A DNA stretch of 64,000 bases. Source: Escherichia coli (GTDB lineage: Bacteria; Pseudomonadota; Gammaproteobacteria; Enterobacterales; Enterobacteriaceae). The first letter of the stretch is position 1; every line of letters begins with the position of its first letter. The translations under genes were made by a program, and so were the position numbers. The notes under the pieces were generated by a model. The model was not told the DNA's origin and made no database searches. It saw nothing but the letters and a program-made list of their open reading frames with translations. This document shows, piece by piece, positions 5,281 through 36,876 of the stretch. The DNA is taken from NCBI RefSeq assembly GCF_041248615.1, contig NZ_CP158425.1; one strand, 5' to 3'.

Positions 5281-6625
5281 AAAGGCCTGGGAAAATAAGA
5301 CCGTCAGACTTTCTGTTATTGGCGCTCTGCTGGTAGTGATTGTTTATATTATTAGCCAGTCTATTTTTTCCACACCAGTTAAGAAAGAAAAGAAAACACA
5401 GAAAAAAGACATGCAGACCAATTTGTTGTTAGATGATTCGCAAATGAACAAATTGAGTAATGAAGAAAGCCAGAAAGTATATAAGGAAATGGTTAAGCAA
5501 AACCGACTTGATCAAAATGCGGCGAAAGAGGACCGCGAAAAAGCAGAAAAAGCCCAACAGGAAACTAAAGCCCAAGTTGCAAGTTTAACTTCTCAACTTC
5601 AGCAACTGTCTCAGCAAATTAATGATATGCAGACTAATCGAAACGGCAATCGTAACTTGGATGCTGGTAGTTCGCGTAAAACGATTAATGAGCAGGCACC
5701 GGCAGCTCCTTATCAGCTTAATGCTAATGCGCCGATTAATGGCGTAAACCCTAATTACGCGTCTATCACACCTACGCGTAATAGCCCGATGAGAACAATC
5801 ACACAAAGTTCCATTAAGACTAATGGTACCGATGGTGTCATTCAGGTTATGCCCGTGTCTGAAAACAGAATCAAGGAAGGCAGAGAGGTCATTGCAGGAG
5901 ATAAAGCGCCTACTCGGACTGTACGAGGTGATGGTACTGCGCCAGTTGATAGCAAAGCGCGGCATGCTGCCCGAAAAGATGAAATGTTTCTTCCGGCAAC
6001 ATCTATTATCACTGGTGTTCTGATTACCGGGCTTGAAGCGCCTACAAGCCTTTCTTCCAAATCAGAACCAATGCCAGTAACAATGCGTATTAAAAAAGAT
6101 GTCATCATGCCCAATAATTTCACCATGGATTTGCGTGACTGTAACCTTCTGGGTTCAGCTGTTGGTGATTTGGCGTCACAGCGTGCTTACATACGTGCCA
6201 CTTCTATCTCTTGTGTTAATTCAAAAGGGAAAGCTTTTGACGTAAAACTGGAAGCATATGCTGTAAGTGAAAATGACGGAAAAAATGGGATCCGAGGCAC
6301 GCTTATCAGCCGAAATGGTAACGCAATTGCAGGAGCTGCATTTGCCGGTGGACTTTCTTCACTTGCCGGTAGCTTAAGCCCCAGTAAGGTATCTTCACTT
6401 AACATCGACCCTAATTCACAGGCTCAGTATCAGTCCCCTAATTTTGGTGCACTTGGGGCATTAGCCGGGGCTGGTGCAGCTCAAGGTGGCCTTAATCGAC
6501 TCGTCGATTACTACACCGCAATTGCAGAACAACAGTGGCCAATCGTAGAAATTAGCCCTGGCCGAGCTATTACATTTGTCGTTCAGACCGGAACTACAAT
6601 TCCAACGAATCTGACCAGTCGCTGA
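5258..6625 (+). CDS. trhB: TraB-like (VirB10-like) protein
   Basis: 455-aa ORF: N-terminal TM, Lys/Glu/Gln-rich coiled-coil region, Gly/Ala-rich C-terminus; position in operon. Confidence 0.65.
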   Translation: MELIMDIKKAWENKTVRLSVIGALLVVIVYIISQSIFSTPVKKEKKTQKKDMQTNLLLDDSQMNKLSNEESQKVYKEMVKQNRLDQNAAKEDREKAEKAQQETKAQVASLTSQLQQLSQQINDMQTNRNGNRNLDAGSSRKTINEQAPAAPYQLNANAPINGVNPNYASITPTRNSPMRTITQSSIKTNGTDGVIQVMPVSENRIKEGREVIAGDKAPTRTVRGDGTAPVDSKARHAARKDEMFLPATSIITGVLITGLEAPTSLSSKSEPMPVTMRIKKDVIMPNNFTMDLRDCNLLGSAVGDLASQRAYIRATSISCVNSKGKAFDVKLEAYAVSENDGKNGIRGTLISRNGNAIAGAAFAGGLSSLAGSLSPSKVSSLNIDPNSQAQYQSPNFGALGALAGAGAAQGGLNRLVDYYTAIAEQQWPIVEISPGRAITFVVQTGTTIPTNLTSR

Positions 6626-12060: not shown

Positions 12061-15000
12061 CTTATTTAACCCCCTTTATCGCCAATCTGTGATTTTCTAA
12101 TGTTAGCCTACAGTTCTAGGGCCCTTGCTCCCATGATGCGAATCCTTCCACCTAATAAAGATTAACGCCTCATTCCTGTATGCCGGTCTTACGACGCCAG
12201 TGCACGGACAATTTTTGGTCATCACAAGGCCAGGCGGGAGATTTAATCAGGGCGTGGTGTTCCTTTGCAGCAGCTGCGGCACTGTAAGCCGAAGGCGGAA
12301 TTAACTCCTTTATCGCCATCTGGGGACGTCATTAGGGGTACCCCTTTTAACTTGCTCAGGACCATTAAGCTAAAATTCCGGATAGTGATTGACGTAAGAT
12401 TTAGGCTAAGCAGGTAAAGTGATCCCCGCTCCCGGGGTGACCACTTTATACAAAAGGCCGATCGGAAGATTGTCCTTAGGGAAATATTCCTTTAACACAG
12501 CACGGGCACTTACTGCCGCTGCCGGATTTAACCCCCTTAATCGCCAAACTGGGGTACTGTCCTGATGCTGGCCTTCCGTCCTGGGCAGGGTTGCTAACAC
12601 TTGCTCCCATGATACGAAATGCGCCAGCTGATACAGATTAACGTCTCATTACTCCATGCCGGTCTGCCGAAACTGGTGCATAGCTTTTTTCGATATTCGC
12701 ATGAACAGACGCTTGATTTTTTCAGGTTGTAATATACCTGAGCAGCATCTGAAGGCACTTTCAGTCGCTGTCAGATTTAACCCCCTTAATCGCCAAACTG
12801 GTGTTCTGTCCTCATGCAGGCCTTCAGTTCTGAGCTGGGTTGCTATCACTTGCTCCCATAATGCGAAATGTACCTGCTGATACAAATTAACGTCGTATTC
12901 CTGTATGCCGGTCTGCCGACACCAGTGCTCGGGCTATTTTCGGTCCTAACAAGACCTGGCGAGAGATTTAATCAGGGCGTGGTGTGACTGAGCAGCAGCT
13001 GGGGCACTGTTATCCGCTTGCAGATTTAACCCCCTTAATCGCCACACTGGGGTTCAGTCCTGATAGTGTCCTTCCGTCCTGGGCTCGGTTGCTAACACTT
13101 GCTCCCATGATACGAAATGCGCCTGCTGATACAGATTAAAGTCACATTACTGCATACCGATCTGCCGACTCCGGTGCATGGCTTTTTCCGATAATCACAA
13201 GGACGGACGGGTGATTTTATCTTTGCATAGTATGTCTGAGCAGCATCAGAAGGCTCTGTCAGCCACTGGCAGATTTAACCCCCTTAATCTCCAAACTGGG
13301 ATCAGTCCTGATAGTGTCCTTCCGTCCTGGGCAGGGTTGCTAACACTTGCTCCCATGATACGAAATGTGCCTGCTGATACAGATTAAAATCACATTACTG
13401 CATACCGGTCTGCCGACACCGGTGCATGGGCGATTTCCGACGATCTCAAGAACATATGGGAGATTATATCAGGGAGAGTAGTATGCCTGAGCAGCATCTG
13501 AAGGCACTGTCAGCCGCTGTCAGATTTAACCCCCTTAATCGCCAAACTGGTGTTCTGTCCTCATGCAGGCCTTCAGTTCTGAGCTGGGTTGCTATCACTT
13601 GCTCCCATAATGCGAAATGTACCTGCTGATACAAATTAACGTCGTATTCCTGTATGCCGGTCTGCCGACACCAGTGCTCGGGCTATTTTCGGTCCTAACA
13701 AGACCTGGCGAGAGATTTAATCAGGGCGTGGTGTGACTGAGCAGCAGCTGGGGCACTGTTATCCGCTTGCAGATTTAACCCCCTTAATCGCCACACTGGG
13801 GTTCAGTCCTGATAGTGTCCTTCCGTCCTGGGCTCGGTTGCTAACACTTGCTCCCATGATACGAAATGCGCCTGCTGATACAGATTAAAGTCACATTACT
13901 GCATACCGATCTGCCGACTCCGGTGCATGGCTTTTTCCGATAATCACAAGGACGGACGGGTGATTTTATCTTTGCATAGTATGTCTGAGCAGCATCAGAA
14001 GGCTCTGTCAGCCACTGGCAGATTTAACCCCCTTAATCTCCAAACTGGGATCAGTCCTGATAGTGTCCTTCCGTCCTGGGCAGGGTTGCTAACACTTGCT
14101 CCCATGATACGAAATGCGCCAGCTGATACAGATTAACGTCTCATTACTCCATGCCGGTCTGCCGAAACTGGTGCATAGCTTTTTTCGATATTCGCATGAA
14201 CAGACGCTTGATTTTTTCAGGTTGTAATATACCTGAGCAGCATCTGAAGGCACTTTCAGTCGCTGTCAGATTTAACCCCCTTAATCGCCAATCTGGGATT
14301 TTCTGATGTTAACCTACAGTTCAAGGCCCTTGCTCCCATGATGCGAACCTTGCAACCTGATAAAGATTTAAGCCTCATTCCTGTATGCCGGTCTTACGAC
14401 TCTAGTGCACGGGGACTATTTTCGGTCATAATAAGACCTGGCGGGAGATTTAATCAGGGCGTGGTGTGACTGAGCAGAAGCTGGGGCACTGTCAGCCGCT
14501 GGCAGATTAAAACCCTTTATTCGCCATCTCAAGACGTCATTATGGGTAGTCCTTTTAACTTTCTAAGGACCATTAAGCTTAAACTCCGTTTAGAGAATGA
14601 CGTAAGATTTAGGCTAAGCAGGTTAAGTGATCCCCGCTCCCGGGTTGAACACTTTATTCATCGTACGAGCGAAAGATTGTCCTTCGGGAAATATTTCTTA
14701 TACACCGCTCGGGCACTTACAGCCACTGGCGGATTTAACCCCCTTAATCGCCAAACTGGGGTACTGTCCTGATGCTGGCCTTCAGTTCTGGGCTGGGTGG
14801 CTATCACTTGCTCCCCTAATGCGAAATGTGTCTGTTAATACAGATTAACGTCATTTTCCTGCGTGCCGGTCTGCCGACACCAGTGCACGGCCTTTTTTCG
14901 GTCATTACATTACCGGGCAGGAGATTTTATCAGGGCGTGGTGTTACTGAGCAGGAGCTGGGGCACTATCAGCAGCTTGCATATTTAACTCCCTTAATCGC

Positions 15001-15640
15001 CAAACTGGTGTTCTGTCCTCATGCTGGCCTTCAGTTCTGGGCTGGGTTGCTATCTCTTGCTCCCATAATGCGAAATGTATCTGCTGATACAGATTAACGT
15101 CATATTCCTGTATGCCGGTCTGCCGACACCAGTGCTTGGGCTATTTTCGGTCATAACAAGACCTGGCGAGAGATTTACTCAGGGCGTGGTGTGACTGAGC
15201 AGCAGCTGGGGCACTGTCATCCGCTTGCAAATTTAACCCCCTTAATCGCCAAACTTGGGTTTTGTCCTGATGCTGGCCTTCCGTTCTGGGCGGGGTTGCT
15301 ATCACTTGCTCCCATCATGCGAAAAGTGCCTGCTGATACAGATTAACGTCATATTCCTTCATGCCGGTCTGCCGACACAAATGCACGGGCTTTTTTCGGT
15401 CCTTACAATACCGGGCAGGAGATTTAATCAGGGCGTGGTGTGACTGAGCAGCAGCTAGGACACTGTCAGCCGCTGGCAGATTTAACCCCCTTAATCGCCA
15501 CACTGGGGTTGCCTCCTGAAGTTGGGTTTCAGTTCTGGGCTAGGTTGCTAACTCTGCTCCCATAATTCGTAGTGGGCCTACTCAAGAGATTAACACCTCA
15601 TATCTTTAGACTGGACTGACGACAACGATTCACAGTTAGG
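12061..15640. repeat. Tandem array of about 14 direct repeats of ~249 bp with nested higher-order duplications
   Basis: The motif GATTTAACCCCCTTAATCGCCA(A/C)ACTGG recurs at about 12524, 12773, 13022, 13271, 13521, 13771, 14020, 14268, 14732, 14982, 15229 and 15478, with diverged copies at about 12062, 12300 and 14505. A 749-bp block is near-identical at 12650-13398 and 13399-14147, and the 12061-12600 flank is echoed at 14270-14810. Confidence 0.9.
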
Positions 15641-15973: not shown

Positions 15974-17227
15974 ATGAATTTACTTGAAAAGATCGCCCTC
16001 GTTGGTCAGCGCATGAAAAGCGAGCAGATTTCTCTTAAGGAATCTCTGATGGCTTCATCAAGAGTATCTGTTTCTGATGATAGTGTTGATGGTGTTGATA
16101 GACTGATCTACAACCACTGTTTAAATAAAAAAAATCTCTCTGATTTTTTTGGGAAGTCACGAGTAACGTTCAATAAAATACTTTCGGACTTAGAAGAAAA
16201 AGAAGTTGTTGGTGCACCTATTTATCAAAACAAAAATCATCTTTACACCCGCTGGGATGTTCAAAAAATAATGGATGCCCTGGGTTATCCCAAGTACCGC
16301 GATCATTACTTTAGCAGAGCTATTGTTACTCAGAATCATAAAGGCGGTACAGGGAAAAGCACTACATCTGTAGCTTTAGCAGTAGCAGCTGCTTTAGATC
16401 TACAACTGAATGCACGTGTATTAATGATCGAATGGGACCCACAAGGTTCGATTGGAAGCAGCATGATTCAAAGTGTCTCAGAAGATGATGTCTTCCTTAC
16501 AGCAATTGATGCAATCCTTGGAATTTATGAAGAAAATTCTGAGTATAAAAAATATTTAGATTCAGGATTCTCTGAAGAAGAAATCATCACTAATATGCCT
16601 TTTTCAACGCATCTGCCAAACTTGGACGTGATAACGGCATTTCCGACAGATGCTCGTTTTAAAGATAAATACTGGCAATGTTCTAGAGAAGAACGAACGT
16701 CTTTGTTACTACGTTTCAAGGAAGTTATCTTACCGGTACTGAAGCAGAACTATGATTTGATTATTATAGACACTCCACCTGAAGATTCACCTTTGATCTG
16801 GGCTGCTGACGAAGCGGCCGATGGGATTCTTGTCGCAGTGTCACCACGTGAATATGATTACGCCTCTACTACAGACTTCATGCTTACAATAAGTGAAAGG
16901 TTTAAACAATCACCAAGTAAGGGCGATAATTTAAAATGGTTCAAAGTTCTTGCTGTCAATGTTGATGACAAAAGTCCATATGAAAGAATAGTTTTGGATA
17001 AATTAATCAGAACTGTTCAGGACCTTTTGATGTCCGCTAACATAAAAAATTCTGAAGCATTTAAGGCAGCTGCTTCCAAAGGGCGTACAGTGCTTGATAT
17101 CAAAAAATCAGAGGAACTTTGTTCCGCAAAGCAACTTGATGTCGCAGAAGAATCTGTATTACAGGTATATCAACAATTTATAAATGAAATAAAAAGTTTT
17201 TCAGCTAAGCAAGGAGTTAACGCATGA
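15974..17227 (+). CDS. parA: Type Ia partition ATPase ParA (SopA/P1-ParA-like, N-terminal HTH extension)
   Basis: 417 aa; deviant Walker A (KGGTGKST) preceded by a ~110-aa N-terminal domain; translationally coupled to the downstream ParB-like gene. Confidence 0.9.
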   Translation: MNLLEKIALVGQRMKSEQISLKESLMASSRVSVSDDSVDGVDRLIYNHCLNKKNLSDFFGKSRVTFNKILSDLEEKEVVGAPIYQNKNHLYTRWDVQKIMDALGYPKYRDHYFSRAIVTQNHKGGTGKSTTSVALAVAAALDLQLNARVLMIEWDPQGSIGSSMIQSVSEDDVFLTAIDAILGIYEENSEYKKYLDSGFSEEEIITNMPFSTHLPNLDVITAFPTDARFKDKYWQCSREERTSLLLRFKEVILPVLKQNYDLIIIDTPPEDSPLIWAADEAADGILVAVSPREYDYASTTDFMLTISERFKQSPSKGDNLKWFKVLAVNVDDKSPYERIVLDKLIRTVQDLLMSANIKNSEAFKAAASKGRTVLDIKKSEELCSAKQLDVAEESVLQVYQQFINEIKSFSAKQGVNA

Positions 17228-18228
17228 GCGATGAGCAACATATCGGGAATGATAAATCTCGATATTTAAACGCACCAAAGCGGACAGAAGTCGGTCACCG
17301 TTCAGGTCTTGCGGGTTTGAAAACAGCACCTCGCATAAAAAAGTTATTCACTCTTCATAAGGGCCGAAGACTTGAAGCGGAACATGTGATTGTTCCAGCC
17401 CAGAGAGTGGAGAAGGAGACCTTAGTCCATCCAGCAAACCCACGAAATCAAGAAGCCCTTACAGATTATTCTGTTAGAGATATTCTTAAGCAGATTGAAG
17501 AAAGAGGGGTCGATACCGAAGGGATCGCTGTAAAAAGAGATGGGGTTTATTTATTAATAGAAGGAAGTCGCAGACGTTTCTGCTGTATAAAGGCAGAAAA
17601 GGATCTCCCCCTGTGGGTACTACCGGATGAACTAACCGAAGATGATATAAATTCAATTATATCCGCAGCACAAACATCTCGAAAATTTTCATATAGAGAA
17701 GTTGGGTTTCAATTTATCAAGAAAATGGAAGAAAAGGGATTTTCTACTAATGAAGAACTCGCAGCATATCTTGGGATTAGTCATGTATCGGTAGCCAAAA
17801 GAATCCAGGCGGCCCGTATTGACGAAACATTGATCTCTTTATTCCCGGATTATGAAGGAATACCGAACTCCTATTATAGTCGCTTGTCTCGTTTACAGAA
17901 ATATGTGCAAAAAAATCTATTTCCTTTAGATGAAGTAATAGATAATGTTAAAGAGGAAACAAAAGATTTAGACATTGGAGATCTCCAAGTTGCCCAAAAA
18001 GTTGTAATGGAGAAAATCACACAATCTGTGGAAAGTGTTTGTGAAAAATCTTATTCCACAAAATGGGAAACAAGTGATCTTATTACTTTTGATAACAAAG
18101 ATAAGTATGCAAGAATCAGTAAAAACAATACTGGAAGAAAAATTCGCATTGAATTCAATAGGATAAGTGCGGGTTTTATTAAGGAGCTAGAGGAGTTCAT
18201 AAAAGAAAAATTAAAAGTATCAGAATAA
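17224..18228 (+). CDS. parB: ParB-like partition protein (centromere-binding)
   Basis: 334-aa ORF overlapping the parA stop by 4 nt; size and operon context typical of type I ParB/SopB. Confidence 0.7.
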   Translation: MSDEQHIGNDKSRYLNAPKRTEVGHRSGLAGLKTAPRIKKLFTLHKGRRLEAEHVIVPAQRVEKETLVHPANPRNQEALTDYSVRDILKQIEERGVDTEGIAVKRDGVYLLIEGSRRRFCCIKAEKDLPLWVLPDELTEDDINSIISAAQTSRKFSYREVGFQFIKKMEEKGFSTNEELAAYLGISHVSVAKRIQAARIDETLISLFPDYEGIPNSYYSRLSRLQKYVQKNLFPLDEVIDNVKEETKDLDIGDLQVAQKVVMEKITQSVESVCEKSYSTKWETSDLITFDNKDKYARISKNNTGRKIRIEFNRISAGFIKELEEFIKEKLKVSE

Positions 18229-18233
18229 ATATT

Positions 18234-18258
18234 GAACTGCATCTTTATGATGCAGTTC
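18234..18258. terminator. Bidirectional terminator candidate between convergent parB and the minus-strand operon
   Basis: Perfect 10-bp inverted repeat GAACTGCATC / GATGCAGTTC around the loop TTTAT. Confidence 0.45.
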
Positions 18259-18289
18259 ATATGATTTATATTTTTAATTTCTTGTTATA

Positions 18290-18679
18290 TTAATATGGGG
18301 TGTGCGCAGGTTCAGACATATAAGGTCTTAGTTCTATATGAACAGAAGCGCCATTCCCATCATTTACTACGTTTAAAGGTGCTTTGCCCGGCAATGACAT
18401 AGTTGCAACGTCAGGTCCAGAAACAGCAAAATTATTTTCTGCTGAAGGCATTACTGTAAAAATCTTTATAGCAACATTTTCATGTCTAAATAAAGAAATC
18501 CCAAAAGTAGAACCAGCTTCGGTATTGCTCACGTCCACAACCACAGGGGTTTTTCCTAGATATTCATTAGTTAGTATGTTTTTTACTAATGCCCCTTCCG
18601 GGACAGTATAGATACGGTATGGATATGCTAAAACTGAGTGACAAAAACATAATAAAATAACAATTAATGTTTTTTTCAT
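18290..18679 (-). CDS. Hypothetical exported protein
   Basis: 129 aa with signal peptide (MKKTLIVILLCFCHSVLA); last gene of a four-gene minus-strand operon with overlapping junctions. Confidence 0.45.
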   Translation of the reverse strand: MKKTLIVILLCFCHSVLAYPYRIYTVPEGALVKNILTNEYLGKTPVVVDVSNTEAGSTFGISLFRHENVAIKIFTVMPSAENNFAVSGPDVATMSLPGKAPLNVVNDGNGASVHIELRPYMSEPAHTPY

Positions 18680-19197
18680 AGATTATCCTCATTCAAAAAT
18701 AAAAGATATAACTCTTGAAAATCGTGGTTATTAATTAGGTCCGCTTTTCCGGGAAAATCGTAACTAACAGAAAATAAAAGAGAAAGAGAATCTTTTCCTT
18801 TTGCTTTGGGAGAGATTCTGCTAAAAGCACGGTTAATAAACATAAGTTGATCTTCATTGTTGAAGCAAAGTCCAAGCATTCCAACCGTAGGAACTACGAA
18901 TGTGCTTACGCTGCCTGGGGGCAAAAGTTGCTTACTACGGGCATTGTAAGCACAACGACTACCACCTAGCGTTAGGCCTGAAAGCTCAATAAAACTTCTG
19001 GTTCCATTCTTGGCGACAAGCCAAACATCAGTTCCTGAACTTTCGACACGTAAAGTAACTTTTCCGTCAGTAAAGGCCTCACTTTTATTGTATAGAATAG
19101 GGTCAAAACCAACTGTCGGGAGTTCTTCGATTTTACTTTCTACTGACTGACAACCAGTCAGTAATGCAAACAATAAAAGTGTGATAACTTTAATCAT
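18676..19197 (-). CDS. Hypothetical lipoprotein
   Basis: 173 aa; lipobox LLTGCQ after the signal peptide; 4-nt overlap with the downstream gene. Confidence 0.45.
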   Translation of the reverse strand: MIKVITLLLFALLTGCQSVESKIEELPTVGFDPILYNKSEAFTDGKVTLRVESSGTDVWLVAKNGTRSFIELSGLTLGGSRCAYNARSKQLLPPGSVSTFVVPTVGMLGLCFNNEDQLMFINRAFSRISPKAKGKDSLSLLFSVSYDFPGKADLINNHDFQELYLLFLNEDNL

Positions 19198-20026
19198 CCC
19201 GCTTCCTTAGATTGTTTTTGGCGCTGGTTATAAAAGATAATGATTCACCGGGGTAGAGAATTGTTTCTTTCGTCCAATAACCATAACCACCGAGGATATC
19301 TTTTCTTTTCTCAATATAAACCGGTTCAGAAAATTCTAAATGTTGATATTTCGGAAGAGATAAGATTTTATATTTTACTTGTCCAACTAAGAGGTAATTC
19401 TTCTCTTTAGGATTGATGGTTACTGAATTACCAACACTTTGAGGTATGTTAAGTTTTTTTATATTTAGATCAGAATCGTCAGGAACGGACACTTGATCAT
19501 TAGATGTCTTTCCGGGAAGAGTAAACCCTTTACCCTGATCCGGTCCAAAGATGGCAATTACATCTTTGTTGTTTCTTGTGATCGAAACGATAGCCTGAAG
19601 GGGCGTATTAGCAAGGTCATTTATAAACGATATAGTTATACTTGATTTAGGCTCGACCCAAACAATGCTTTTTCCGGATGTGCCTTCGCTTAATGCAATT
19701 TTTTCATTTAGTAAGATTTTATTTTTGGCAATGATATTATACTCAAGTTTCGGTATCACCATAAAAAGTGATTCTTTATTTGAAACATTCATGATTTCTA
19801 AGAAATTGGTTTTGGTCATGCTGGTCTTTAGAGCAGGCCTATATTTACCATTTATAAACCACCTTCCGTTTATAAGCTCCGCTTTAGCAGATATAAGTGA
19901 ATCACTTTTCTGAGCGGCAGAAGAAAAAGCATCTTTTCTTTGCTCTTTCTCTTGATGTGGTGCAGCTGCTGCGTGAAGATGCAAAAGTAATGTTGAAATT
20001 GAGATAATCTTCCATTTTATCTTCAT
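19190..20026 (-). CDS. Hypothetical exported protein
   Basis: 278 aa with N-terminal signal peptide; overlaps neighbours at both ends. Confidence 0.45.
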   Translation of the reverse strand: MKIKWKIISISTLLLHLHAAAAPHQEKEQRKDAFSSAAQKSDSLISAKAELINGRWFINGKYRPALKTSMTKTNFLEIMNVSNKESLFMVIPKLEYNIIAKNKILLNEKIALSEGTSGKSIVWVEPKSSITISFINDLANTPLQAIVSITRNNKDVIAIFGPDQGKGFTLPGKTSNDQVSVPDDSDLNIKKLNIPQSVGNSVTINPKEKNYLLVGQVKYKILSLPKYQHLEFSEPVYIEKRKDILGGYGYWTKETILYPGESLSFITSAKNNLRKRDD

Positions 20027-20970
20027 CTTGTTACCTCAATGTTGTTTTCAATCGAATCGAGTTCTAAAGGATAGGTTTTAAGTGAATAAAACTTGTTTGT
20101 TGTTTGTATTAGCTGATGACACAATAAAACTGGATTGTTCTTCATGATTATTTCTACTAATGTAAGTGCTGGTGAGTCAGTTGGCGGTATACCCGGAGCA
20201 ACTATTACCTGGTCTTCTAATTTTGACATATAGAGTGATCCAGTATTTATATGTAAACAATTACCGATCAGTACTGGAAGATTGTTTTGAGTACGACCAT
20301 GGGCTTTTCGAATGCTGTTTACAGGATTCCTACCTAGGACCATAAGGTTGACGTCATTTATCATCATTGGTATTACGGCATGGTCCATACCGAATAGAAA
20401 CTGGCTCTGAAAAATATTCACATTGGCATAGTTGAATGCTTGAAGCGCATTATAAGTATCAGTGAATGATGTGCGGATAGGGGCGTAATCAGAAGGGCAA
20501 ACCCCAATTTTTATATCGCCTTTGAGTAAAATCTGCATCATCGTACCAAGCTGGGTATTAAGAAGTTTTTTTACCTCTTCCTCTAAATAGTAACGATTTA
20601 CAGCTTTATGCCACTTTCCGCCCATTACACACCATCTCTCATTGAGGTATGTGCTGGGGTAAAATGTTCTCCGGTCTTTGTTTAATGGTAACAATTTTTT
20701 TAACATTTCTTCTCCGGCTCCGGCAGCTGAGAAATGCCTCACAAAACGTCCATCGAAAAAGCCACTGTTTATCGCCTTCATCAACTCTATGGGTTCCGGC
20801 CCATAGTCAAACAAATTTCCAGTAGAGAAAATTACTATCTCTTCTTCTGGCTTTGTAACTGATTGAATCAAGTTGCACAGCGCAGAGTAATGTCCATGAG
20901 GATCTGCCAGAAAGAAAATCCTTCCCGAGAAGTTTGTAAGGTCTATAGTTTGGACGTGCTCAGCTGCCAT
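20023..20970 (-). CDS. Calcineurin-like metallophosphoesterase (PrpA/ApaH-type phosphatase fold)
   Basis: 315 aa with D-x-H-G (LADPHGH) and GNLFDYG (GDxxDRG-like) metal-binding motifs; first gene of the minus-strand operon. Confidence 0.65.
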   Translation of the reverse strand: MAAEHVQTIDLTNFSGRIFFLADPHGHYSALCNLIQSVTKPEEEIVIFSTGNLFDYGPEPIELMKAINSGFFDGRFVRHFSAAGAGEEMLKKLLPLNKDRRTFYPSTYLNERWCVMGGKWHKAVNRYYLEEEVKKLLNTQLGTMMQILLKGDIKIGVCPSDYAPIRTSFTDTYNALQAFNYANVNIFQSQFLFGMDHAVIPMMINDVNLMVLGRNPVNSIRKAHGRTQNNLPVLIGNCLHINTGSLYMSKLEDQVIVAPGIPPTDSPALTLVEIIMKNNPVLLCHQLIQTTNKFYSLKTYPLELDSIENNIEVTR

Positions 20971-21333
20971 AAATTCCTCTACGTATGTTTACATCGATGA
21001 TACGGTATTTCGAGCTATGATTTTTTTACATAAAGGCGTCATTTTGGATTCTAAGCCTAAGGACCTTTGTTACTTACTGGTAAAGGCTCCAGTCCTGGCT
21101 CTCAAACAGTTCATACTTAGGATGCAAAGTAACTTTCTGATTATAATTGGCTCCTTTATAAACATGTTTACTTCATGAATACAGGATATTTAACGGTAAT
21201 GTATTTAAAATGGAAGGATGCTGAAATAACATAGAGTTACGTATTTTTTTAATAGTGTTGATGTTGATAATAGGTCACCATTAATGTATAAAGTTAATAT
21301 CTAATATGGTCCTATTAATAAAAGAGAGTTTTT

Positions 21334-22371
21334 ATGGCTGAACTATTAAAATCTGAAAGTCCTGTTTCACAATCATTGCAGGATATCACTGAAGCTTTAA
21401 AAATCGTTGTCGATGATGGAAGTAAAGCTGCAAAACTGGTTTGTCTTAATGAAAGAAACGAATTAGTTCCCTTGCTCACACAAAATAGTTTTGTTCCAGA
21501 TTTCCGTGTTCGCCATGAGGGTCTCAATCCTTTTAACTATCTTATTGATGGGCTGGAAAGGTTTTCGCATCACAGCGAATCTAGTAACTCACTGGAATCG
21601 ACTGATGTATCTCACCAATACGATGAAATTAGCCGGTTAAATGTTCACCATGCACTTCATGCTTCTGGTTTAGTTCCTCAGGATGTTCACCTCTTTGTTA
21701 CTTTACCTCTTAGCCAGTTCTATACTGCTTTAGGGGAAACGAATATTGAAAATATTCAGAGAAAAAAAGATAACCTGATGAAACCAGTTGAGCGTTATCT
21801 TGACGGTAAACGCTATTCTTTCAACGTTTTGTCTGTGACTGTTTTCCCTGAATCTTTACCAGCTGTGACCCGGGCAGATGAAATTGAGGATATTGCTTCA
21901 TTTGAATCAAGTTTGGTAATTGATCTTGGTGGTACTACTCTTGATGTTGCAAGTATTACTGGGCAATTAGAACAGATTTCGAAAGTAAAAGGTTTTGACC
22001 GTATTGGTTGTTCTATTGTTTACGATGAGATCAGCAGGTATCTTGAATCTGAGAAACTGAATACGAGTAATGCTTACATTCATCATCTTGTTGATAATCG
22101 TCATGATAAATCAGCTTTGAAGGTTGCAGAGGACAAGCGTGACGGTGTTTTTGATGCGGTAAACTCTGCGGTACAGAAGTTGCAAAGTAAAGTAATCAGA
22201 GCGGTTACACAAGTCGAAGAGAGGCCTCATAATGTTTTCCTTGTTGGGGGAGGTTCATATCTCATCGAAACAGCTATTCGTAAACATTTTGAAACGGCTA
22301 AAGTTATCATGGTAGACAATCCGCAGTTCGCATTATCTTTGGCAATTGCTGATACTATTTATTCAGAATAA
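21334..22371 (+). CDS. parM: Actin-like partition ATPase ParM/StbA (type II)
   Basis: 345 aa; actin-fold phosphate motifs (VIDLGGTTLDV, FLVGGGS). Confidence 0.8.
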   Translation: MAELLKSESPVSQSLQDITEALKIVVDDGSKAAKLVCLNERNELVPLLTQNSFVPDFRVRHEGLNPFNYLIDGLERFSHHSESSNSLESTDVSHQYDEISRLNVHHALHASGLVPQDVHLFVTLPLSQFYTALGETNIENIQRKKDNLMKPVERYLDGKRYSFNVLSVTVFPESLPAVTRADEIEDIASFESSLVIDLGGTTLDVASITGQLEQISKVKGFDRIGCSIVYDEISRYLESEKLNTSNAYIHHLVDNRHDKSALKVAEDKRDGVFDAVNSAVQKLQSKVIRAVTQVEERPHNVFLVGGGSYLIETAIRKHFETAKVIMVDNPQFALSLAIADTIYSE

Positions 22372-22382
22372 TGAGCTAGAAC

Positions 22383-23021
22383 ATGGCTAAAAACCCTATC
22401 TCAAATAAGGCAGATAACGACCGGATTCAGATCCGGTCTTTCTGGATATCCGAAAGAAAAGCACCCTATGTTTATAGTTTCTTGAAAAAAACAGAACTTT
22501 CTCATAGGGGTGACCAACTGGATTTAATTAGGTCGGCTATTAGTACCGGGTTGGTATTGAATAATTTATTTCCTGACTTGGCAAATTTTATAAATGGTTT
22601 AAACGAAAGATTAACACTTGCAGATCTTAATAGGTTTCTGAATGATGGAAATACTATAGATACTGAACCTAAGCCTCCTATTAATGTATTGCTAGAGAAT
22701 GTCTTAGATCAAAAGTTTAAGGAGTATTTAACACCTCTACAATTAGATAATTCAAAGCAGGATTCTGTTTCTGTAAAAGAAACCTTCCTTGTACAAAAGG
22801 AACATGCCTGCTTTGGTGTGAAGATTGAAAATGAGGGAAGCGATACCTCTATACCATCTGAAAGCCCACTTTCTTCAGATGCATCCAAAATTTCAAAAGA
22901 AAAGTCCATTTCCGCTGTGGTGCCAGTGCTAGAAAAAGTATCGGATGAAAATCAAACCGCCTCCATAAGCATAAAATCTAAAGCTAAGGCAAACAAGCGA
23001 CTGGCAACTTTGGCAAGATAG
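22383..23021 (+). CDS. parR: ParR-like adaptor of the type II partition module (assignment from position)
   Basis: 212-aa ORF 11 nt downstream of parM; basic C-terminal tail; no independent motif evidence. Confidence 0.45.
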   Translation: MAKNPISNKADNDRIQIRSFWISERKAPYVYSFLKKTELSHRGDQLDLIRSAISTGLVLNNLFPDLANFINGLNERLTLADLNRFLNDGNTIDTEPKPPINVLLENVLDQKFKEYLTPLQLDNSKQDSVSVKETFLVQKEHACFGVKIENEGSDTSIPSESPLSSDASKISKEKSISAVVPVLEKVSDENQTASISIKSKAKANKRLATLAR

Positions 23022-24975: not shown

Positions 24976-27900
24976 ATGAGAAAATCAGGTTTAGGTTTAG
25001 CCCTGTTGTTTTCTTTAATTGCTCCGATTAAAGCGGTCTATGCCGAAGCGATTATGATTTCAGGAAAGCTACAGGCTGATTTGCCAGCCGTATCCTTTGA
25101 CCCGGGGCCGGGCGACTTTGTTGCATACGTTAATTCTAACACTATCACTGCCTCAGGTGCAGGCACAGCCTGTAATGTAACGGTTGATGATCGAGCGACT
25201 TCCTCTGTTGATAACCTCGTTTGTTTTTTTGAGTGGTTACCCAATACCTTGGGATTTACTTCTAACGGTTTCACTCTTTCAGGCGTTCCCAACACCACCG
25301 GTGATTTAAAACTACCTTACAAGATTTCTTACTTCTCTGGTTCTGAACGGAAAAAAGTTGAAATAGTAAAAGGTGAATATTCAATCAAAAGTGTGGCACC
25401 GGTAAAACCTACTATCACCGGTCTTAAATCATCCCTGAACGGATTAGTCTATGACGGCTTTTCTTTCAAATCGTATTTAAAGGATGAAGCGATCAAAGAT
25501 ATCGCTGTTTCTGTTGAGCCCCGCAATTATATTCAATACATCTCAATAGGTTCAGGCTCCGCCTGTGAAGTTCCTATTGGCGGAACTTCCTGTACCATTG
25601 AAGTTGGAAGCATTAAGGCCAGTGATACAGATGAACTTTTGGGTTCACGTGATATCACAATTACAGCAAACTCTAAGAATAATTATTTCGCACCTCCTGA
25701 ATCCAAAAAGCTTGTTGTTAACTGGGATTATCGGCCTCCTGTAGTAGACCATACACTTTGGAATTTTACCGATGAGGCTAAAACAATCAAAGTAGGTGGC
25801 CAGGACATCTATACCGGAGCCAAAACCGTTGCTGTGGCCGTTAAGGTACCCCAGCAAGAAACAGAAGGTGAATGGTGGCTCCCAACAGCTATGTCGCTCA
25901 CTATGACTCCGGATGGCGTGTTTAAACCGACGACTAAAGTGACTTTAGATGATGGCACTGAGATTGATTTCAAACAGTCCTGGGCAACCCCTTTACGTAG
26001 AACTTTACAGCCGGTAAGTGGACCTCAAAAAGTCGGTGATGAGTACCTCTATATCTTCGACTTAACGGATCTTATAAACGGGTCCTACGCAGCGACTTTT
26101 ACAGTAGAAAATACGAGCAAAAACTCTTCTACGTACACTGAGCCTGAAAGCAAACTGATGCTGTCTGATAACCCAACGCTTATGGTTCTCAAAGATGGGC
26201 AGGTATTAACTAAACGAGCACCCGTATACTTCCTGAACGAGATTATCGTTGCAGCTTTCCAGGGGCAGGCTGGGGTTGCTGACATAAAATCAGTAACAAT
26301 AGACAACAAAGTAGTTTCGTTAACACCTACAAATTATAGAGGTATTTACTACCTGCCGGTTGGAGACGATTTAGCAGTTAATTCGGATCACGAGATTACT
26401 GTGGTGGCTGAAAACCTTTATGGAAAAAACGTTAATTTCAGTACCGTTTTCACTTATCAACCTACTGGATTCACTCTCAAGAATCTGGAAAAAAACGTAA
26501 CTCTTTACTCGCGTGTACGTCAGTATACGGACCTGCTTAGTCAAACAGCTGGTGATAAATGCACTCTGTTTACCACAGAGGAAAATGCGAATGCTTACCT
26601 CGCCTGGTATGGGGAAAAATCAGATGTTACAGCATGCTACCCTCAGTGGAACAATGTCCCTGATGGGTTGGAGTTCTATTTTAAAGGACGTACCCCGGGT
26701 CTAACTGGATTCTTTAATAAAACAGGTGAGAATCTGCTCGACTATCAAGTCTATATGATTAACGGGAAGGGCTCTAAAGCGGTATCCGCAAGGAATCGCC
26801 GTACTCTGACCACACAATTACCATACAACCCGATCATCTCTTACAAAAAGAATAAAGTCATAGCTGGCATCAATCCGAACACTGCTCTGGCTTATACGAC
26901 CGGGGGGGAGGCCGCTCGAATATTAGCGAAGGTGGTACCAGCTGACGTTACGATGATCGTCTCTCAAAACGGCTCTGAGGCTGTCAAAACGTCATTTAAA
27001 AATCGTTCCTCAAACAACGATGCAACGACCTTTGTACAAAGGGTTAAGGTTGCTGCTGCACCATTGTGGACAAAGAACGTCTTTGACATAGCTGTAGAAT
27101 ACTCAAAGGATCCAGAATTAAGAACTACAGACACACTCAACGTATATACGGTGCCTGATTTCAATATTCGAGCATCGATGGAAGTGGATGACAGAAAAAC
27201 AGCCACATCTCTTGAAGTGCCCTTAAAGGTAACAGTGGGGCGTTATAACAACTCCACACGTAAAAGTGCATTTGACCGTAAAACAATGGGAGAATGGGAC
27301 GTCACGATATACTCGCAAAAAAGTGTATACGGCAAAGATCCAGAAACAGGCCGTTATAAAACTACATACGAAAGAACTGCGCTGACTGAAGCATTGCCGG
27401 TCAATGATGCGGGCATTGTCGAAACCAAGATTAAAATTGAAAATATGGATCTGGGTAATATGCGTCTGGTTGGTGTGGCTAAGGTCAGATCGCCATTCTC
27501 TGATTTTGAAATGAAACGTGAGACCAGTGCTGTAGGCATTCGAATCTATAAAGGTGAGGAACTGGAGGGTAACCTGTCGAAAAGCCTTATTATCGGAAGG
27601 ATCCCACTTAGTACTCTGGTAAGCTTCAAATCTGCCAGTACTGCTAACTCTGACGCACTTGCCCCCACCGAATGGCAGCAGTCCTCTGATAATGGTCAAA
27701 CCTGGAATATGCTTTCCGACATGACCGGAAAGAGAAGTGTAAGTATCAAAAAGACAGAAGTAGGAAAGTGGCTTTATAGGGCAAAAATGACCAATAAATT
27801 CACATCTAAGGTTTCCTACACAGATGCCTTAACGGTAGTTACCTACAAGCAGCCTAAGCTCAGTATAGATGTGACAGACATTCTTCAGGGCTCAGATGTA

Positions 27901-29280
27901 CCTGTAACCCTGCTTGATAACGATGAGCCTATACCAGCAGGCACCGCTGAGGTTCTCTGGTCAGAGGATAAAGTCAACTGGGTGCAGGGAGATACAACTT
28001 ACACTGTGGCTTCAGCTGATACCCTACCGTCTACGATTTATGCCCGGATGCGTTACCTTGATTCCGATGAACTGGCAGAGGAGTCTTCATGGAAGGAAAC
28101 GTCTGCTCGGTTGGCAGCCGCAAAACCCAAGCGCCTTTCTGTCTCGGTAACGGGGGTTTCTAAGGTAGAGGTTGGTCAAAAAGTTACTTTGGAAGGTAAG
28201 TTCACGAACCCTAACAGTAAGTACCAGAATGGTAATAACGTAGTTGAAGAATGGAAAACACCGGATGGCCAGACATTTAAAGGCTCTACACTGTCTGTTA
28301 CCCTTACTGAGCAAATGTTGGATAAACAGGGATATGCTGCTTTTGAATACAGTGCATGGTTAGCGGACAATAAGGAGAATACGGTTTCTACCCGTAGAGT
28401 TTCTGTCAAATCGTGGGTTTATAAATTCCCCGAAATGAAAATAAGCTCCAAACTTAAATACGACATGGCACCGACCACCCTACGCGTTGCGTTGAGCGGT
28501 ATTAAGGATGGAGACTATCCTGGTGTTACTTATTCCCGAGAATGGATTTACGACAAAGAGAATCTGGTAATCACTAAAGATGAAGGTGACACCAAAGAAT
28601 TTACAATTGAAAATCCTGGCAAATATACATTGATGGTTGTTTTCAAAGATAACCGCAACAATGAACAGCGTATCGAAAATACCTTTGTTGTCGATGAACA
28701 AACGCCAATGAACGTTGAGATGACACCCAAGTTCTCTAACAAATATATGAGAGCTCCACTCGATGTAACCTTAAGGTCAAACATCAAGCTATCTCATTCG
28801 GCGGACTCGATAGATACGGTCACATACAAGGTGAACGGTGAGGTAATACCCAGCGGCAAAAATTATTGGGCTCAACTGATTTCGGGTTTAAAAGAAAAGA
28901 AATACGAGATCACAATTGATGTTGTTAGTAAACTTGGACAGAGAGGTTCAGCATCTGTTGAGTTTGATGTCGTTAAAAACGCAGTGCCTAATTGTACATT
29001 GAGCTACACGGAAACCAACCTAAGCTGGAGCTTTACCAATAAATGTGATGATACTGATGGAAAAATGGTTAGATATGAATGGTTCATCAACGGAGAATTA
29101 AGGAACGTTTTCGGTAGTACGGCTACACTTTCTAAAAACCTTAACCGTGGTAAGCAGGACATAAAAGTAATTGCTTATGATGATAGTGGAGACTTTGCAA
29201 CGCAGCACGTGACAGTTTTCGGACCGGCTGAAGAGGCAAGTAAGTCTGAAAACACTGTATCAATACCAAGCAGTGAGTAA
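24976..29280 (+). CDS. Giant exported protein (1434 aa), beta-rich and Thr/Ser/Val-rich, consistent with tandem Ig-like domains as in IncHI RSP-type proteins
   Basis: Signal peptide (LALLFSLIAPIKAVYA); long Thr/Ser/Val/Asn-rich sequence without TM segments; position inside the transfer region. Confidence 0.6.
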   Translation: MRKSGLGLALLFSLIAPIKAVYAEAIMISGKLQADLPAVSFDPGPGDFVAYVNSNTITASGAGTACNVTVDDRATSSVDNLVCFFEWLPNTLGFTSNGFTLSGVPNTTGDLKLPYKISYFSGSERKKVEIVKGEYSIKSVAPVKPTITGLKSSLNGLVYDGFSFKSYLKDEAIKDIAVSVEPRNYIQYISIGSGSACEVPIGGTSCTIEVGSIKASDTDELLGSRDITITANSKNNYFAPPESKKLVVNWDYRPPVVDHTLWNFTDEAKTIKVGGQDIYTGAKTVAVAVKVPQQETEGEWWLPTAMSLTMTPDGVFKPTTKVTLDDGTEIDFKQSWATPLRRTLQPVSGPQKVGDEYLYIFDLTDLINGSYAATFTVENTSKNSSTYTEPESKLMLSDNPTLMVLKDGQVLTKRAPVYFLNEIIVAAFQGQAGVADIKSVTIDNKVVSLTPTNYRGIYYLPVGDDLAVNSDHEITVVAENLYGKNVNFSTVFTYQPTGFTLKNLEKNVTLYSRVRQYTDLLSQTAGDKCTLFTTEENANAYLAWYGEKSDVTACYPQWNNVPDGLEFYFKGRTPGLTGFFNKTGENLLDYQVYMINGKGSKAVSARNRRTLTTQLPYNPIISYKKNKVIAGINPNTALAYTTGGEAARILAKVVPADVTMIVSQNGSEAVKTSFKNRSSNNDATTFVQRVKVAAAPLWTKNVFDIAVEYSKDPELRTTDTLNVYTVPDFNIRASMEVDDRKTATSLEVPLKVTVGRYNNSTRKSAFDRKTMGEWDVTIYSQKSVYGKDPETGRYKTTYERTALTEALPVNDAGIVETKIKIENMDLGNMRLVGVAKVRSPFSDFEMKRETSAVGIRIYKGEELEGNLSKSLIIGRIPLSTLVSFKSASTANSDALAPTEWQQSSDNGQTWNMLSDMTGKRSVSIKKTEVGKWLYRAKMTNKFTSKVSYTDALTVVTYKQPKLSIDVTDILQGSDVPVTLLDNDEPIPAGTAEVLWSEDKVNWVQGDTTYTVASADTLPSTIYARMRYLDSDELAEESSWKETSARLAAAKPKRLSVSVTGVSKVEVGQKVTLEGKFTNPNSKYQNGNNVVEEWKTPDGQTFKGSTLSVTLTEQMLDKQGYAAFEYSAWLADNKENTVSTRRVSVKSWVYKFPEMKISSKLKYDMAPTTLRVALSGIKDGDYPGVTYSREWIYDKENLVITKDEGDTKEFTIENPGKYTLMVVFKDNRNNEQRIENTFVVDEQTPMNVEMTPKFSNKYMRAPLDVTLRSNIKLSHSADSIDTVTYKVNGEVIPSGKNYWAQLISGLKEKKYEITIDVVSKLGQRGSASVEFDVVKNAVPNCTLSYTETNLSWSFTNKCDDTDGKMVRYEWFINGELRNVFGSTATLSKNLNRGKQDIKVIAYDDSGDFATQHVTVFGPAEEASKSENTVSIPSSE

Positions 29281-36003: not shown

Positions 36004-36876
36004 TTACTTGGCTTTCAATGTTTTTTCTGGGAAGCCTTTTTTACCGTATTCACCGGTAAAGAGGTAATAATCTTTTCCGTTGATGGAGGCTGCAACACCC
36101 CCTGGAGTTGTTGTATTTGGGCTATCAGAACGGAAAATGATACCCGAAAAATCAGCGCTTGTTTCGTTTCCTTTAAATGGGATGAACACATAACGAATTA
36201 CAGCGTAATCACCAGCGGGAAGGTTTAGCTGAGGAATTTCGGTTCCTGTTGCGGGGCGAATCGCCTGAAAGCTGTACATTGAATCTGTAGGGAAAACATC
36301 AGCATCAGGCTTAGAGGGCAGATCACAGGTACTCCATTTATTGACGACTGCCATATCAATTTTACATGTGGCCAGAGCTGCTTTCTGTTTTTCAGGGTTG
36401 TATCCAAATGAGGCCTGAGTTGCTTTTGTATGCTCAAAAACATACTTAGCTCCTTCACGTACCAAACTTTCATCATTGTAAGGCAATTTTTTTGGATTGG
36501 GGACGAACACTAGGTATTGATTGACCTGGATGTATTCGGCGTCAGAAGAACTGTACAAAGAGCCGAGGCTCATGATCCCAAAACCTTTTAGACCGCCTGT
36601 TACGTAGCCCATCGAACTATTGATGAGATACTTAGAAAGAAAGTTGTCGGCATCCCCTCCAGGAGTAACCTCTTGCTCCTTAAAATTAACGTCGAAACCA
36701 GCAAACGAATAGGCATTCTTGGCGACAGAATCATTTGCTTTAGCATGCCAGTACTGGCCGTGACTGTACGCATTCAGAGCGGTGCCTGGCGTAGTGCCGG
36801 TGTCACCGGCACAACCCGATAGGGAAAAACCAATGACGACAGAAGAGACCAGAGATACTAAACGTAAAAGTTTCAT
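36004..36876 (-). CDS. Hypothetical lipoprotein
   Basis: 290 aa; lipobox LSGCAG after the signal peptide. Confidence 0.5.
   Translation of the reverse strand: MKLLRLVSLVSSVVIGFSLSGCAGDTGTTPGTALNAYSHGQYWHAKANDSVAKNAYSFAGFDVNFKEQEVTPGGDADNFLSKYLINSSMGYVTGGLKGFGIMSLGSLYSSSDAEYIQVNQYLVFVPNPKKLPYNDESLVREGAKYVFEHTKATQASFGYNPEKQKAALATCKIDMAVVNKWSTCDLPSKPDADVFPTDSMYSFQAIRPATGTEIPQLNLPAGDYAVIRYVFIPFKGNETSADFSGIIFRSDSPNTTTPGGVAASINGKDYYLFTGEYGKKGFPEKTLKAK

Follow-up and report, generated by a model that had tools for sequence, protein, structure and literature searches.

The four co-oriented genes at the center of this analysis very probably constitute the published Z operon (trhO-eexB/orf16-orf17-trhZ) in the Tra2 conjugative-transfer region of an IncHI2 plasmid. 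As such, they would form an accessory module of the H-type (MOB_H/MPF_F) conjugation machine, and neither a signaling-enzyme operon nor a part of the partition apparatus. The preliminary description of this DNA had missed the named operon and its best-documented function, plasmid exclusion. The Z operon has already been named and studied genetically; therefore, the finding adds no new system. Beyond the published operon, our sequence comparisons point to a copper-less tandem cupredoxin prediction for EexB together with its fastest evolution, a weak PEGA signature in TrhZ, and persistence of the cassette in the absence of partition modules. Furthermore, TrhO lacks nearly all catalytic residues of the phosphatase fold that it adopts and is therefore probably not an enzyme (i.e., a pseudophosphatase). 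IncHI2 plasmids are major vehicles for resistance genes, including mcr. More than 1,100 sequenced plasmids contain the backbone segment, and the operon affects transfer frequency as well as which cells can be entered.

Identity and organization of the operon

The window, which refers to the entire 64,000-nucleotide stretch analyzed, is an IncHI2 plasmid backbone with 100% identity to pM160133_p1. The four-gene segment is present in 1,127 plasmid records at a cut-off of at least 80% nucleotide identity, and IncHI1 plasmids have about 72% nucleotide identity to it over part of its length only. The same four genes are found in R27 and pHCM1, with protein sequence identities of 72, 44, 62, and 78% to R27 R0015, R0016, R0017, and R0018, respectively. 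In the R27 gene table, all four are labeled "(Z)", namely R0015 as trhO "phosphodiesterase", R0016 as eexB, R0017 as "Lipoprotein", and R0018 as trhZ (PMC7366339). In UniRef, the exact TrhO sequence carries the name "IncH1 plasmid conjugative transfer protein TrhO", and the TrhZ homologs bear the TrhZ name in both UniRef and NCBI. Given the wide distribution of the segment among plasmids, the presence of the same genes in R27 and pHCM1, and dN/dS values below 0.5 for all four genes, these are real genes rather than chance open reading frames.

The gene order annotated in the identical IncHI2 plasmid is that of Tra2 (trhC ... parAB - four genes - parMR - htdA - rsp - trhF). In this plasmid, R27, pHCM1, and eight further loci, the Z-operon genes are co-oriented between the trhA-trhC and htdA-trhN operons and divergent from parM. 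The R27 and IncHI2 operons are alike in gene content, gene order, overlapping junctions, Tra2 position, and divergence from parM, whereas their alleles form distinct sets, with EexB being strongly diverged. The features of the region are listed in Table 1.

Table 1. Features of the Z operon and its flanking regions, with positions in the window.
Feature	Position	Strand	Description
parAB	15974-18228		
Bidirectional terminator-like hairpin, common to the convergent trhZ and parB	18233-18259	.	11-bp stem (5 GC pairs), detected on both strands
trhZ (R27 R0018 homolog)	18290-18679	-	129 aa, exported, PEGA-like motif
orf17 (R27 R0017 homolog)	18676-19197	-	173 aa, predicted lipoprotein
eexB/orf16 (R27 R0016 homolog)	19190-20026	-	278 aa, exported exclusion protein, predicted copper-less tandem cupredoxin
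trhO (R27 R0015 homolog)	20023-20970	-	315 aa, cytoplasmic, lambda-phosphatase fold, degenerate active site
trhO-parM divergent intergenic region	20971-21333	.	363 bp, presumably holds the Z-operon promoter
parMR	21334-23021		parM start at 21334

The preliminary description had called four overlapping minus-strand genes, which encode a cytoplasmic protein, two signal-peptide proteins, and a lipoprotein, and had placed them divergently from parM between parAB and parMR. All of these calls were reproduced. The gene boundaries are exactly as called, and neighboring genes overlap by 4, 8, and 4 nt (ATGA, ATGATTAA, and ATGA, respectively). Hydrophobic segments are lacking in the first protein, both at the N-terminus and internally, while each of the others begins with a hydrophobic leader, followed by a lipobox in the 173-aa product. 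Conservation of the operon, the absence of which had been named as evidence against the original proposal, extends beyond the plasmid records to distant IncH-like elements. The overlapping junctions, the single terminator, and the lack of an upstream sigma-70 consensus are consistent with a single transcription unit, and a ribosome-binding site (GAGGAA) lies upstream of the operon's first ATG. A consensus scan of the trhO-parM spacer found no sigma-70-like site, which fits an activator-dependent promoter, as the R27 Z operon requires activation by TrhR/TrhY (PMC7366339). Iterons and a ParR-type centromere were likewise absent from this spacer, which contains only short repeats at chance level.

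In R27, the Z operon is also repressed by HtdA along with other tra operons, and at 25°C an htdA mutant shows 8- to 17-fold higher expression of all four Z-operon genes (PMC7366339). EexB of R27 is reported to localize to the outer membrane and to mediate exclusion of related plasmids, being needed in both donor and recipient (cited in PMC11493245). In R27, trhO and trhZ reportedly raise the transfer frequency, and both are needed for the full frequency (cited in PMC11628540). These exclusion and transfer phenotypes come from R27 (IncHI1) rather than from the IncHI2 copy studied here, for which our literature search found no experiments. In addition, trhO is the first gene of the operon, and insertions there could act polarly on the three downstream genes.

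Fold and active-site residues of TrhO

The fold predicted in the preliminary description was found. TrhO adopts an alpha/beta sandwich and matches the profile of the calcineurin-like metallophosphoesterases (PF00149), specifically the lambda-PP/PrpA branch. The predicted model is of moderate confidence (pLDDT 64), with two long segments below 50. Compared to lambda Ser/Thr phosphatase (NinI; PDB 1g5b), TrhO is longer by about 95 residues and has an insertion at approximately residues 160–205 and a C-terminal beta extension. Among the PHROGs, TrhO has a weak NinI-like match, and nothing meaningful was found for EexB, Orf17, and TrhZ. PADLOC had no matches for any of the four proteins.

The active site of TrhO is degenerate. 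The IncHI2 protein has substitutions at five of the seven canonical metal/catalytic positions and at both phosphate-binding Arg; the residues of lambda phosphatase that are lost include D49, R53, R73, N75, H76, H139, and H186. Motif I (D-x-H; lambda-PP D20 and H22) is intact in the IncHI1 and IncHI2 copies, as D23-P-H25 in the latter. In the family, the His is not conserved, being Tyr or Cys in 7 of 12 members, and Asn replaces the Asp in two distant members. Motif II (G-D-x-x-D-R, containing the bridging D49 and the phosphate-binding R53) reads GNLFDYG in TrhO, in which N52 is invariant and Y56 nearly so. Of the motifs noted in the preliminary description, the DxH is present in this copy, whereas the "GDxxDRG-like" motif has neither the Asp that bridges the metals nor the Arg that binds phosphate. 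Motif III (G-N-H-E, with the metal ligand N75 and the general acid H76) is G-A-G-E (A85 and G86) in a high-confidence hhalign alignment. Finally, the metal-ligand His residues H139 and H186 are replaced by P159 (Pro, Ser, or Ala in the family) and R214 (invariant in alignment A1), respectively. Taken across the residue table, canonical enzymes all have D-H-D-D-R-N-H-H-H, whereas the TrhO clade has D-(H/Y/C)-N-D-Y-A-G-(P/S/A)-R. The more distant cassette-linked relatives also have incomplete sets, such that a complete canonical set was absent from every operon-linked homolog examined; in comparison, each of the canonical relatives retrieved with the same profile retains all of these residues. 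The replacement residues are themselves largely conserved, and the dN/dS values of 0.04–0.10 indicate strong purifying selection on TrhO.

These patterns bear on the original proposal that TrhO is an active metallophosphoesterase, such as a protein phosphatase, an Ap4A hydrolase, or a cyclic-nucleotide phosphodiesterase, and thereby controls transfer, either through dephosphorylation or through breakdown of a nucleotide signal. The lambda-PP/ApaH-type fold, the intact motif I in the IncHI1/HI2 copies, the RefSeq label "metallophosphoesterase", and the corresponding label in the R27 table are in line with this proposal. Moreover, D23, D55, E87, D161, H121, H197, H224, and H240 are invariant in the TrhO family and could in principle build a non-canonical site. 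However, the loss of most metal, catalytic, and phosphate-binding residues argues against activity, as does the variability of motif I in the family. In work by Zhuo and colleagues in 1994, single substitutions at D20, H22, D49, or H76 of lambda-PP reportedly cut activity by orders of magnitude. TrhO also scores far below the PrpA and PrpB equivalog cut-offs (NCBIfam NF007425 and NF008516; 23.6 and 14 bits, compared to cut-offs of 332 and 326, respectively). Taken together, an active enzyme is unlikely. The earlier interpretation survives as to gene organization and fold, and the Ser/Thr phosphatase, Ap4A, or cyclic-nucleotide chemistry attached to it is not supported. The database label "metallophosphoesterase/phosphodiesterase" for TrhO is probably misleading.

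It appears reasonably likely that TrhO arose long ago from a lambda-type protein phosphatase, is catalytically dead, and was recruited by IncH-type conjugation as a cytoplasmic binding subunit, possibly linked to an envelope module of EexB, Orf17, and TrhZ. Our literature search found no paper that describes TrhO in this role. Non-catalytic members of the metallophosphoesterase fold include Vps29, the B-subunits of DNA polymerases alpha/delta/epsilon, and GAP50. TrhO has no specific sequence relationship to these proteins and derives from the lambda-PP/PrpA branch. As a dead phosphatase, TrhO would bind something in the cytoplasm, acting as a scaffold, adaptor, or regulator without hydrolyzing phosphate esters. 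If so, a "phosphatase" that modulates the spread of IncHI resistance plasmids would act through protein-protein contacts, and the operon would unite two "retired enzyme" folds. A quite different role, in which the transfer channel would export TrhO as a protein substrate into the recipient, where it would help establishment (e.g., by binding a host protein), is very improbable. It may be argued by inference from a non-catalytic, strongly conserved cytoplasmic protein encoded in a transfer region, and from the C-terminal beta extension (residues ~265–301) that is missing in lambda phosphatase. However, the lack of PADLOC matches speaks against such delivery, and the translational coupling of trhO to genes for envelope proteins suggests that it functions in the donor or resident cell.

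The exported proteins EexB, Orf17, and TrhZ

Searches of Pfam, NCBIfam, and PDB sequences returned nothing significant for EexB, Orf17, and TrhZ. For EexB, structure prediction suggests cupredoxin beta-sandwich domains in a two-domain (tandem) arrangement. The copper ligands of such domains (HxH motifs and the type-1 His/Cys/His site) are absent; the protein has no Cys, the mature form has only two His, and no His or Cys is invariant among 19 homologs. EexB also has no lipobox and no obvious beta-barrel. SufI/FtsP and multicopper oxidases differ from EexB in having three domains rather than two and in functioning in cell division or oxidation rather than plasmid exclusion, and EexB has no detectable sequence similarity to them (Pfam Cu-oxidase E = 0.36). 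EexB is the fastest-evolving gene of the operon, being the most divergent in almost every comparison; between IncHI1 and IncHI2, its identity is 44%, compared to 62–78% for the other three. The variable part of EexB lies at approximately residues 165–220. Such divergence is as expected for a determinant of exclusion specificity, and together with the predicted cupredoxin fold it offers a concrete handle on this specificity.

Other outer-membrane-associated exclusion factors of conjugative plasmids include TraT (F-like plasmids) and Sfx (IncC), which EexB resembles in location (PMC11493245). EexB is not homologous to either, and none of the three exported proteins has a TraT match in Pfam or NCBIfam. 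Sfx acts in the recipient only and targets TraN, whereas EexB is reportedly needed in the donor too (PMC11493245). As for eexA, our guess is the R0004-like lipoprotein gene at positions 36004–36876.

Orf17 is predicted to be a lipoprotein based on its signal peptide and an N-terminal lipobox (LLTG-C16, with Gln at +2). Its residues C16, C82, and C111 are invariant among 12 homologs. The small exported protein TrhZ is highly conserved, and its signal peptide ends in ...SVLA/YPY. The stretch VPEGALV...G.TP gives a weak match to PEGA (PF08308), with best E-values of 0.039–0.049; 4 of 11 members have E ≤ 0.1 and none of the 11 reach 0.001. TrhZ contains a literal P-E-G-A ... G-x-T-P motif, and P27, A30, G42, T44, and P45 are invariant. 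All three exported proteins may work close to the transfer apparatus, either at the outer membrane or in the periplasm. There, the conserved TrhZ and Orf17 would dock onto conserved parts of the machine, and the variable EexB would supply like-versus-like recognition, such that mating is blocked with cells that already hold the same plasmid type.

Relationship to the partition modules

That the four genes serve plasmid partition or maintenance, as may be supposed from their location between the ParAB and ParMR modules, the same siting in IncHI1, HI2, and HI3 plasmids, and the divergent intergenic region in common with parM, is extremely improbable, given that three of the four products are exported, that the operon is co-regulated with tra operons, that its published phenotypes are exclusion and transfer frequency, and that three distant loci (L005, L006, and L008) have the cassette beside trhC/trhV and htdA/rsp without parAB, and in L008 also without parMR. 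Because these distant IncH-like elements keep the cassette in the absence of the partition modules, the cassette belongs to the transfer system, and its inclusion in the partition system was rejected. Its siting between two partition modules is incidental.

Organization and identity of the four-gene operon

The four ORFs of the operon are arranged head to tail, with overlaps of 4, 8, and 4 nt at successive junctions (ATGA, ATGATTAA, and ATGA, respectively). The trhO start ATG has a GAGGAA ribosome-binding site just 5' of it, and the trhO-parM spacer is 363 bp. EexB and TrhZ have signal-type leaders at the N-terminus, whereas the TrhO sequence has neither a hydrophobic leader nor a membrane-like segment. 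The preliminary description of four genes with overlapping junctions and exported products, placed divergently from parM, was correct, including the location. In some of the records compared, trhO is annotated with an extended N-terminus, giving products of 323 or 338 aa (L003 20184-21155 and L015 1988-3004). Alignment of the family favors the shorter start used in the window, MA(A/S)EHVQ.

Features of the window in and around the operon
Feature	Coordinates	Strand	Description
Tandem array	12504-15594		249-bp unit, 12.6 copies, 73% matches; occupies the trhC-parA gap, which has no CDS
parAB	15974-18228		Flanks the operon on the trhZ side; parB convergent with trhZ
Terminator-like hairpin	18233-18259	both	11-bp stem, between trhZ and convergent parB
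trhZ	18290-18679	minus	129 aa
orf17	18676-19197	minus	173 aa, lipoprotein
eexB/orf16	19190-20026	minus	278 aa
trhO	20023-20970	minus	315 aa
parMR	21334-23021		Flanks the operon on the trhO side; parM divergent from trhO
ParR-like protein	22383-23021		42% identity to R27 counterpart; adjacent ParM 80%
RSP	24976-29280		1,434 aa, Ig-like domains; in the htdA operon, just downstream
R0004-position ORF	36004-36876	minus	290 aa; flanked by trhN and trhI, which are on the other strand

The operon segment is 100% identical in many IncHI2 plasmids (e.g., pM160133_p1, with coinciding coordinates) and was found at 80% or higher nucleotide identity in 1,127 plasmid records. A more sensitive search added 284 records with 60-80% identity, and those examined are IncHI1 and IncHI1B/HI3-type plasmids. 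One flank holds trhB, htdT, trhV, and trhC, and the other holds parM, parR, htdA, rsp, trhF, trhU, and trhN; these surroundings are the Tra2 conjugative-transfer region. The IncHI1 prototype R27 has the same layout. With its locus numbering anchored on R0003 (trhI), R0005 (trhN), and R0009 (rsp), the four window genes correspond to R0015 to R0018, entries given in the supplementary table of PMC7366339. Independently, UniRef names the exact 315-aa sequence "IncH1 plasmid conjugative transfer protein TrhO", and homologs of the 129-aa protein bear the name TrhZ, both in agreement with the R27 table. It is highly likely that these genes constitute the Z operon and share its role; the Z operon is already known as a system.

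Homologs of all four genes, with gene order unchanged, are present on contigs whose TrhO is a distant relative (27-45% identity). One flank of these cassettes has TraC/TraV/TrbI-type genes, and the other has htdA/htdF/htdK and a gene for a giant RSP-like protein. At the cassettes of L005, L006, and L008, parAB is absent, and parMR is also absent in L008. The location between two partition modules is therefore a feature of enterobacterial IncHI backbones only, and the four-gene cassette is part of the transfer system rather than of partition. In addition, the orf17 and trhZ homologs are separated by an oppositely oriented YdjM-family gene (PF04307) in two distant IncH-like elements (L006 10462-10962 and L009 3497-3994), so the cassette is not always contiguous. 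RSP is required for IncHI conjugation, and every distant locus examined has an RSP-like giant gene in addition to the cassette.

TrhO and the phosphatase fold

The Pfam Metallophos profile gives TrhO a weak match (E=6e-5) limited to residues 17-118, and the protein scores 24 and 14 bits against the NCBIfam PrpA and PrpB models (cut-offs 332 and 326, respectively). Only about 10 full-length relatives were found when 1.84 billion representatives were searched with a profile; next came ordinary enzymes of about 220 aa that resemble the bacteriophage lambda Ser/Thr phosphatase (lambda-PP). Profile-profile comparison of the TrhO clade with these lambda-PP-like enzymes gave an hhalign probability of 99.9% (E=8e-32). 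The phosphoesterase fold initially proposed from sequence motifs was thus recovered by the Metallophos profile. Compared with lambda-PP, TrhO has the phosphatase fold without the phosphatase site.

Residues of the TrhO clade at lambda-PP positions, based on alignment with canonical enzymes and profile comparison
lambda-PP position	Canonical enzymes	TrhO clade
D20	D	D
H22	H	H, Y, or C
D49	D	N in every cassette-linked homolog
D52	D	D
R53	R	Y (N in one member)
R73	variable (R in some)	A, T, or S
N75	N	A (F in one member)
H76	H	G, invariant
H139	H	P, S, or A
H186	H	R, invariant

The catalytic set is also incomplete in the distant cassette-linked proteins (L005, L006, L008, and L009), two of which have Asn in place of D20. 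The replacement residues are largely conserved across the clade and the dN/dS of trhO is 0.04-0.10 (three close comparisons); TrhO is therefore maintained by selection. Judging from the sequences, dinuclear-metal phosphoester hydrolysis is very probably not what is selected for, and TrhO is rather likely to be non-catalytic. Alternatively, the invariant D161, H121, H197, H224, and H240 might build another site. Given the lost catalytic residues, the enzymatic signaling role suggested in the preliminary description is unsupported. The interpretation of TrhO as a pseudophosphatase was not found in the literature searched.

Exported proteins

In nearly all comparisons, EexB has diverged more than the other three products. 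Its identity to the window protein is 95% in R478-type IncHI2 plasmids, 87% in L016, 78% in L015, and 44% in R27, versus 97-99.7, 97-100, 89-94, and 62-78%, respectively, for TrhO, Orf17, and TrhZ. The dN/dS of eexB (0.27-0.44) is also the highest of the operon. This divergence is compatible with a specificity determinant and is no proof of positive selection. The copper ligands are lost in EexB, and its predicted fold is a copper-less cupredoxin, which was not found in the literature searched. In the metagenomic relative L012, the gene at the eexB position (5386-5781) has a product of just 131 aa, whereas the other three genes (trhO, orf17, and trhZ) are intact; the short gene may reflect exclusion-gene decay or an assembly/frameshift artifact. 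The fast-diverging ParR-like adaptor beside the conserved ParM motor resembles EexB relative to its neighbors.

Orf17 has a lipobox (LLTG-C16) with an invariant Cys. Two other Cys residues, C82 and C111, are also invariant and are probably disulfide-bonded to each other. TrhZ is the best conserved of the exported proteins and has a literal PEGA...G-x-T-P motif, with weak matches to Pfam PEGA.

Function and regulation

Activation of the Z operon requires TrhR and TrhY, and HtdA opposes both; in an htdA mutant at 25 C, all four R27 genes are up 8- to 17-fold (PMC7366339). As the R27 work is summarized, the operon shares its regulation with the tra operons, and full transfer depends on TrhO and TrhZ, with trhO and trhZ raising transfer frequency (PMC11628540, summarizing Lawley et al., 2003). 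The link to transfer control made in the preliminary description was right. The main documented function, exclusion, was absent from it. According to a summary of Gunton et al. (2008), EexB-dependent exclusion requires the factor on both partners, with EexA and EexB needed in donor and recipient alike (PMC11493245).

The results obtained here comprise predicted folds, predicted compartments, residue losses, evolutionary rates, and cassette conservation. In the proposed mechanism, Orf17, TrhZ, and EexB would function next to the transfer apparatus, either in the periplasm or at the outer membrane, EexB would be the source of type-specific like-with-like recognition, and TrhO would act as a cytoplasmic binding protein. 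A pseudophosphatase TrhO and a copper-less EexB would be modest refinements that shift experiments from substrates to partners.

The ORF at the R0004 position is a possible candidate for eexA; R27 transcriptome data show very high expression of R0004, whose RefSeq annotation is lipoprotein. Finally, the tandem array has a GC content of 48-50%, compared with 36-39% around it. The same gap in R27 contains arrays of a 52-bp unit (21.6 copies) and a 54-bp unit (5.6 copies), which share the core GGCGATTAAGGGGGTTAAAT. The window array may represent the ParAB centromere or incompatibility repeats.
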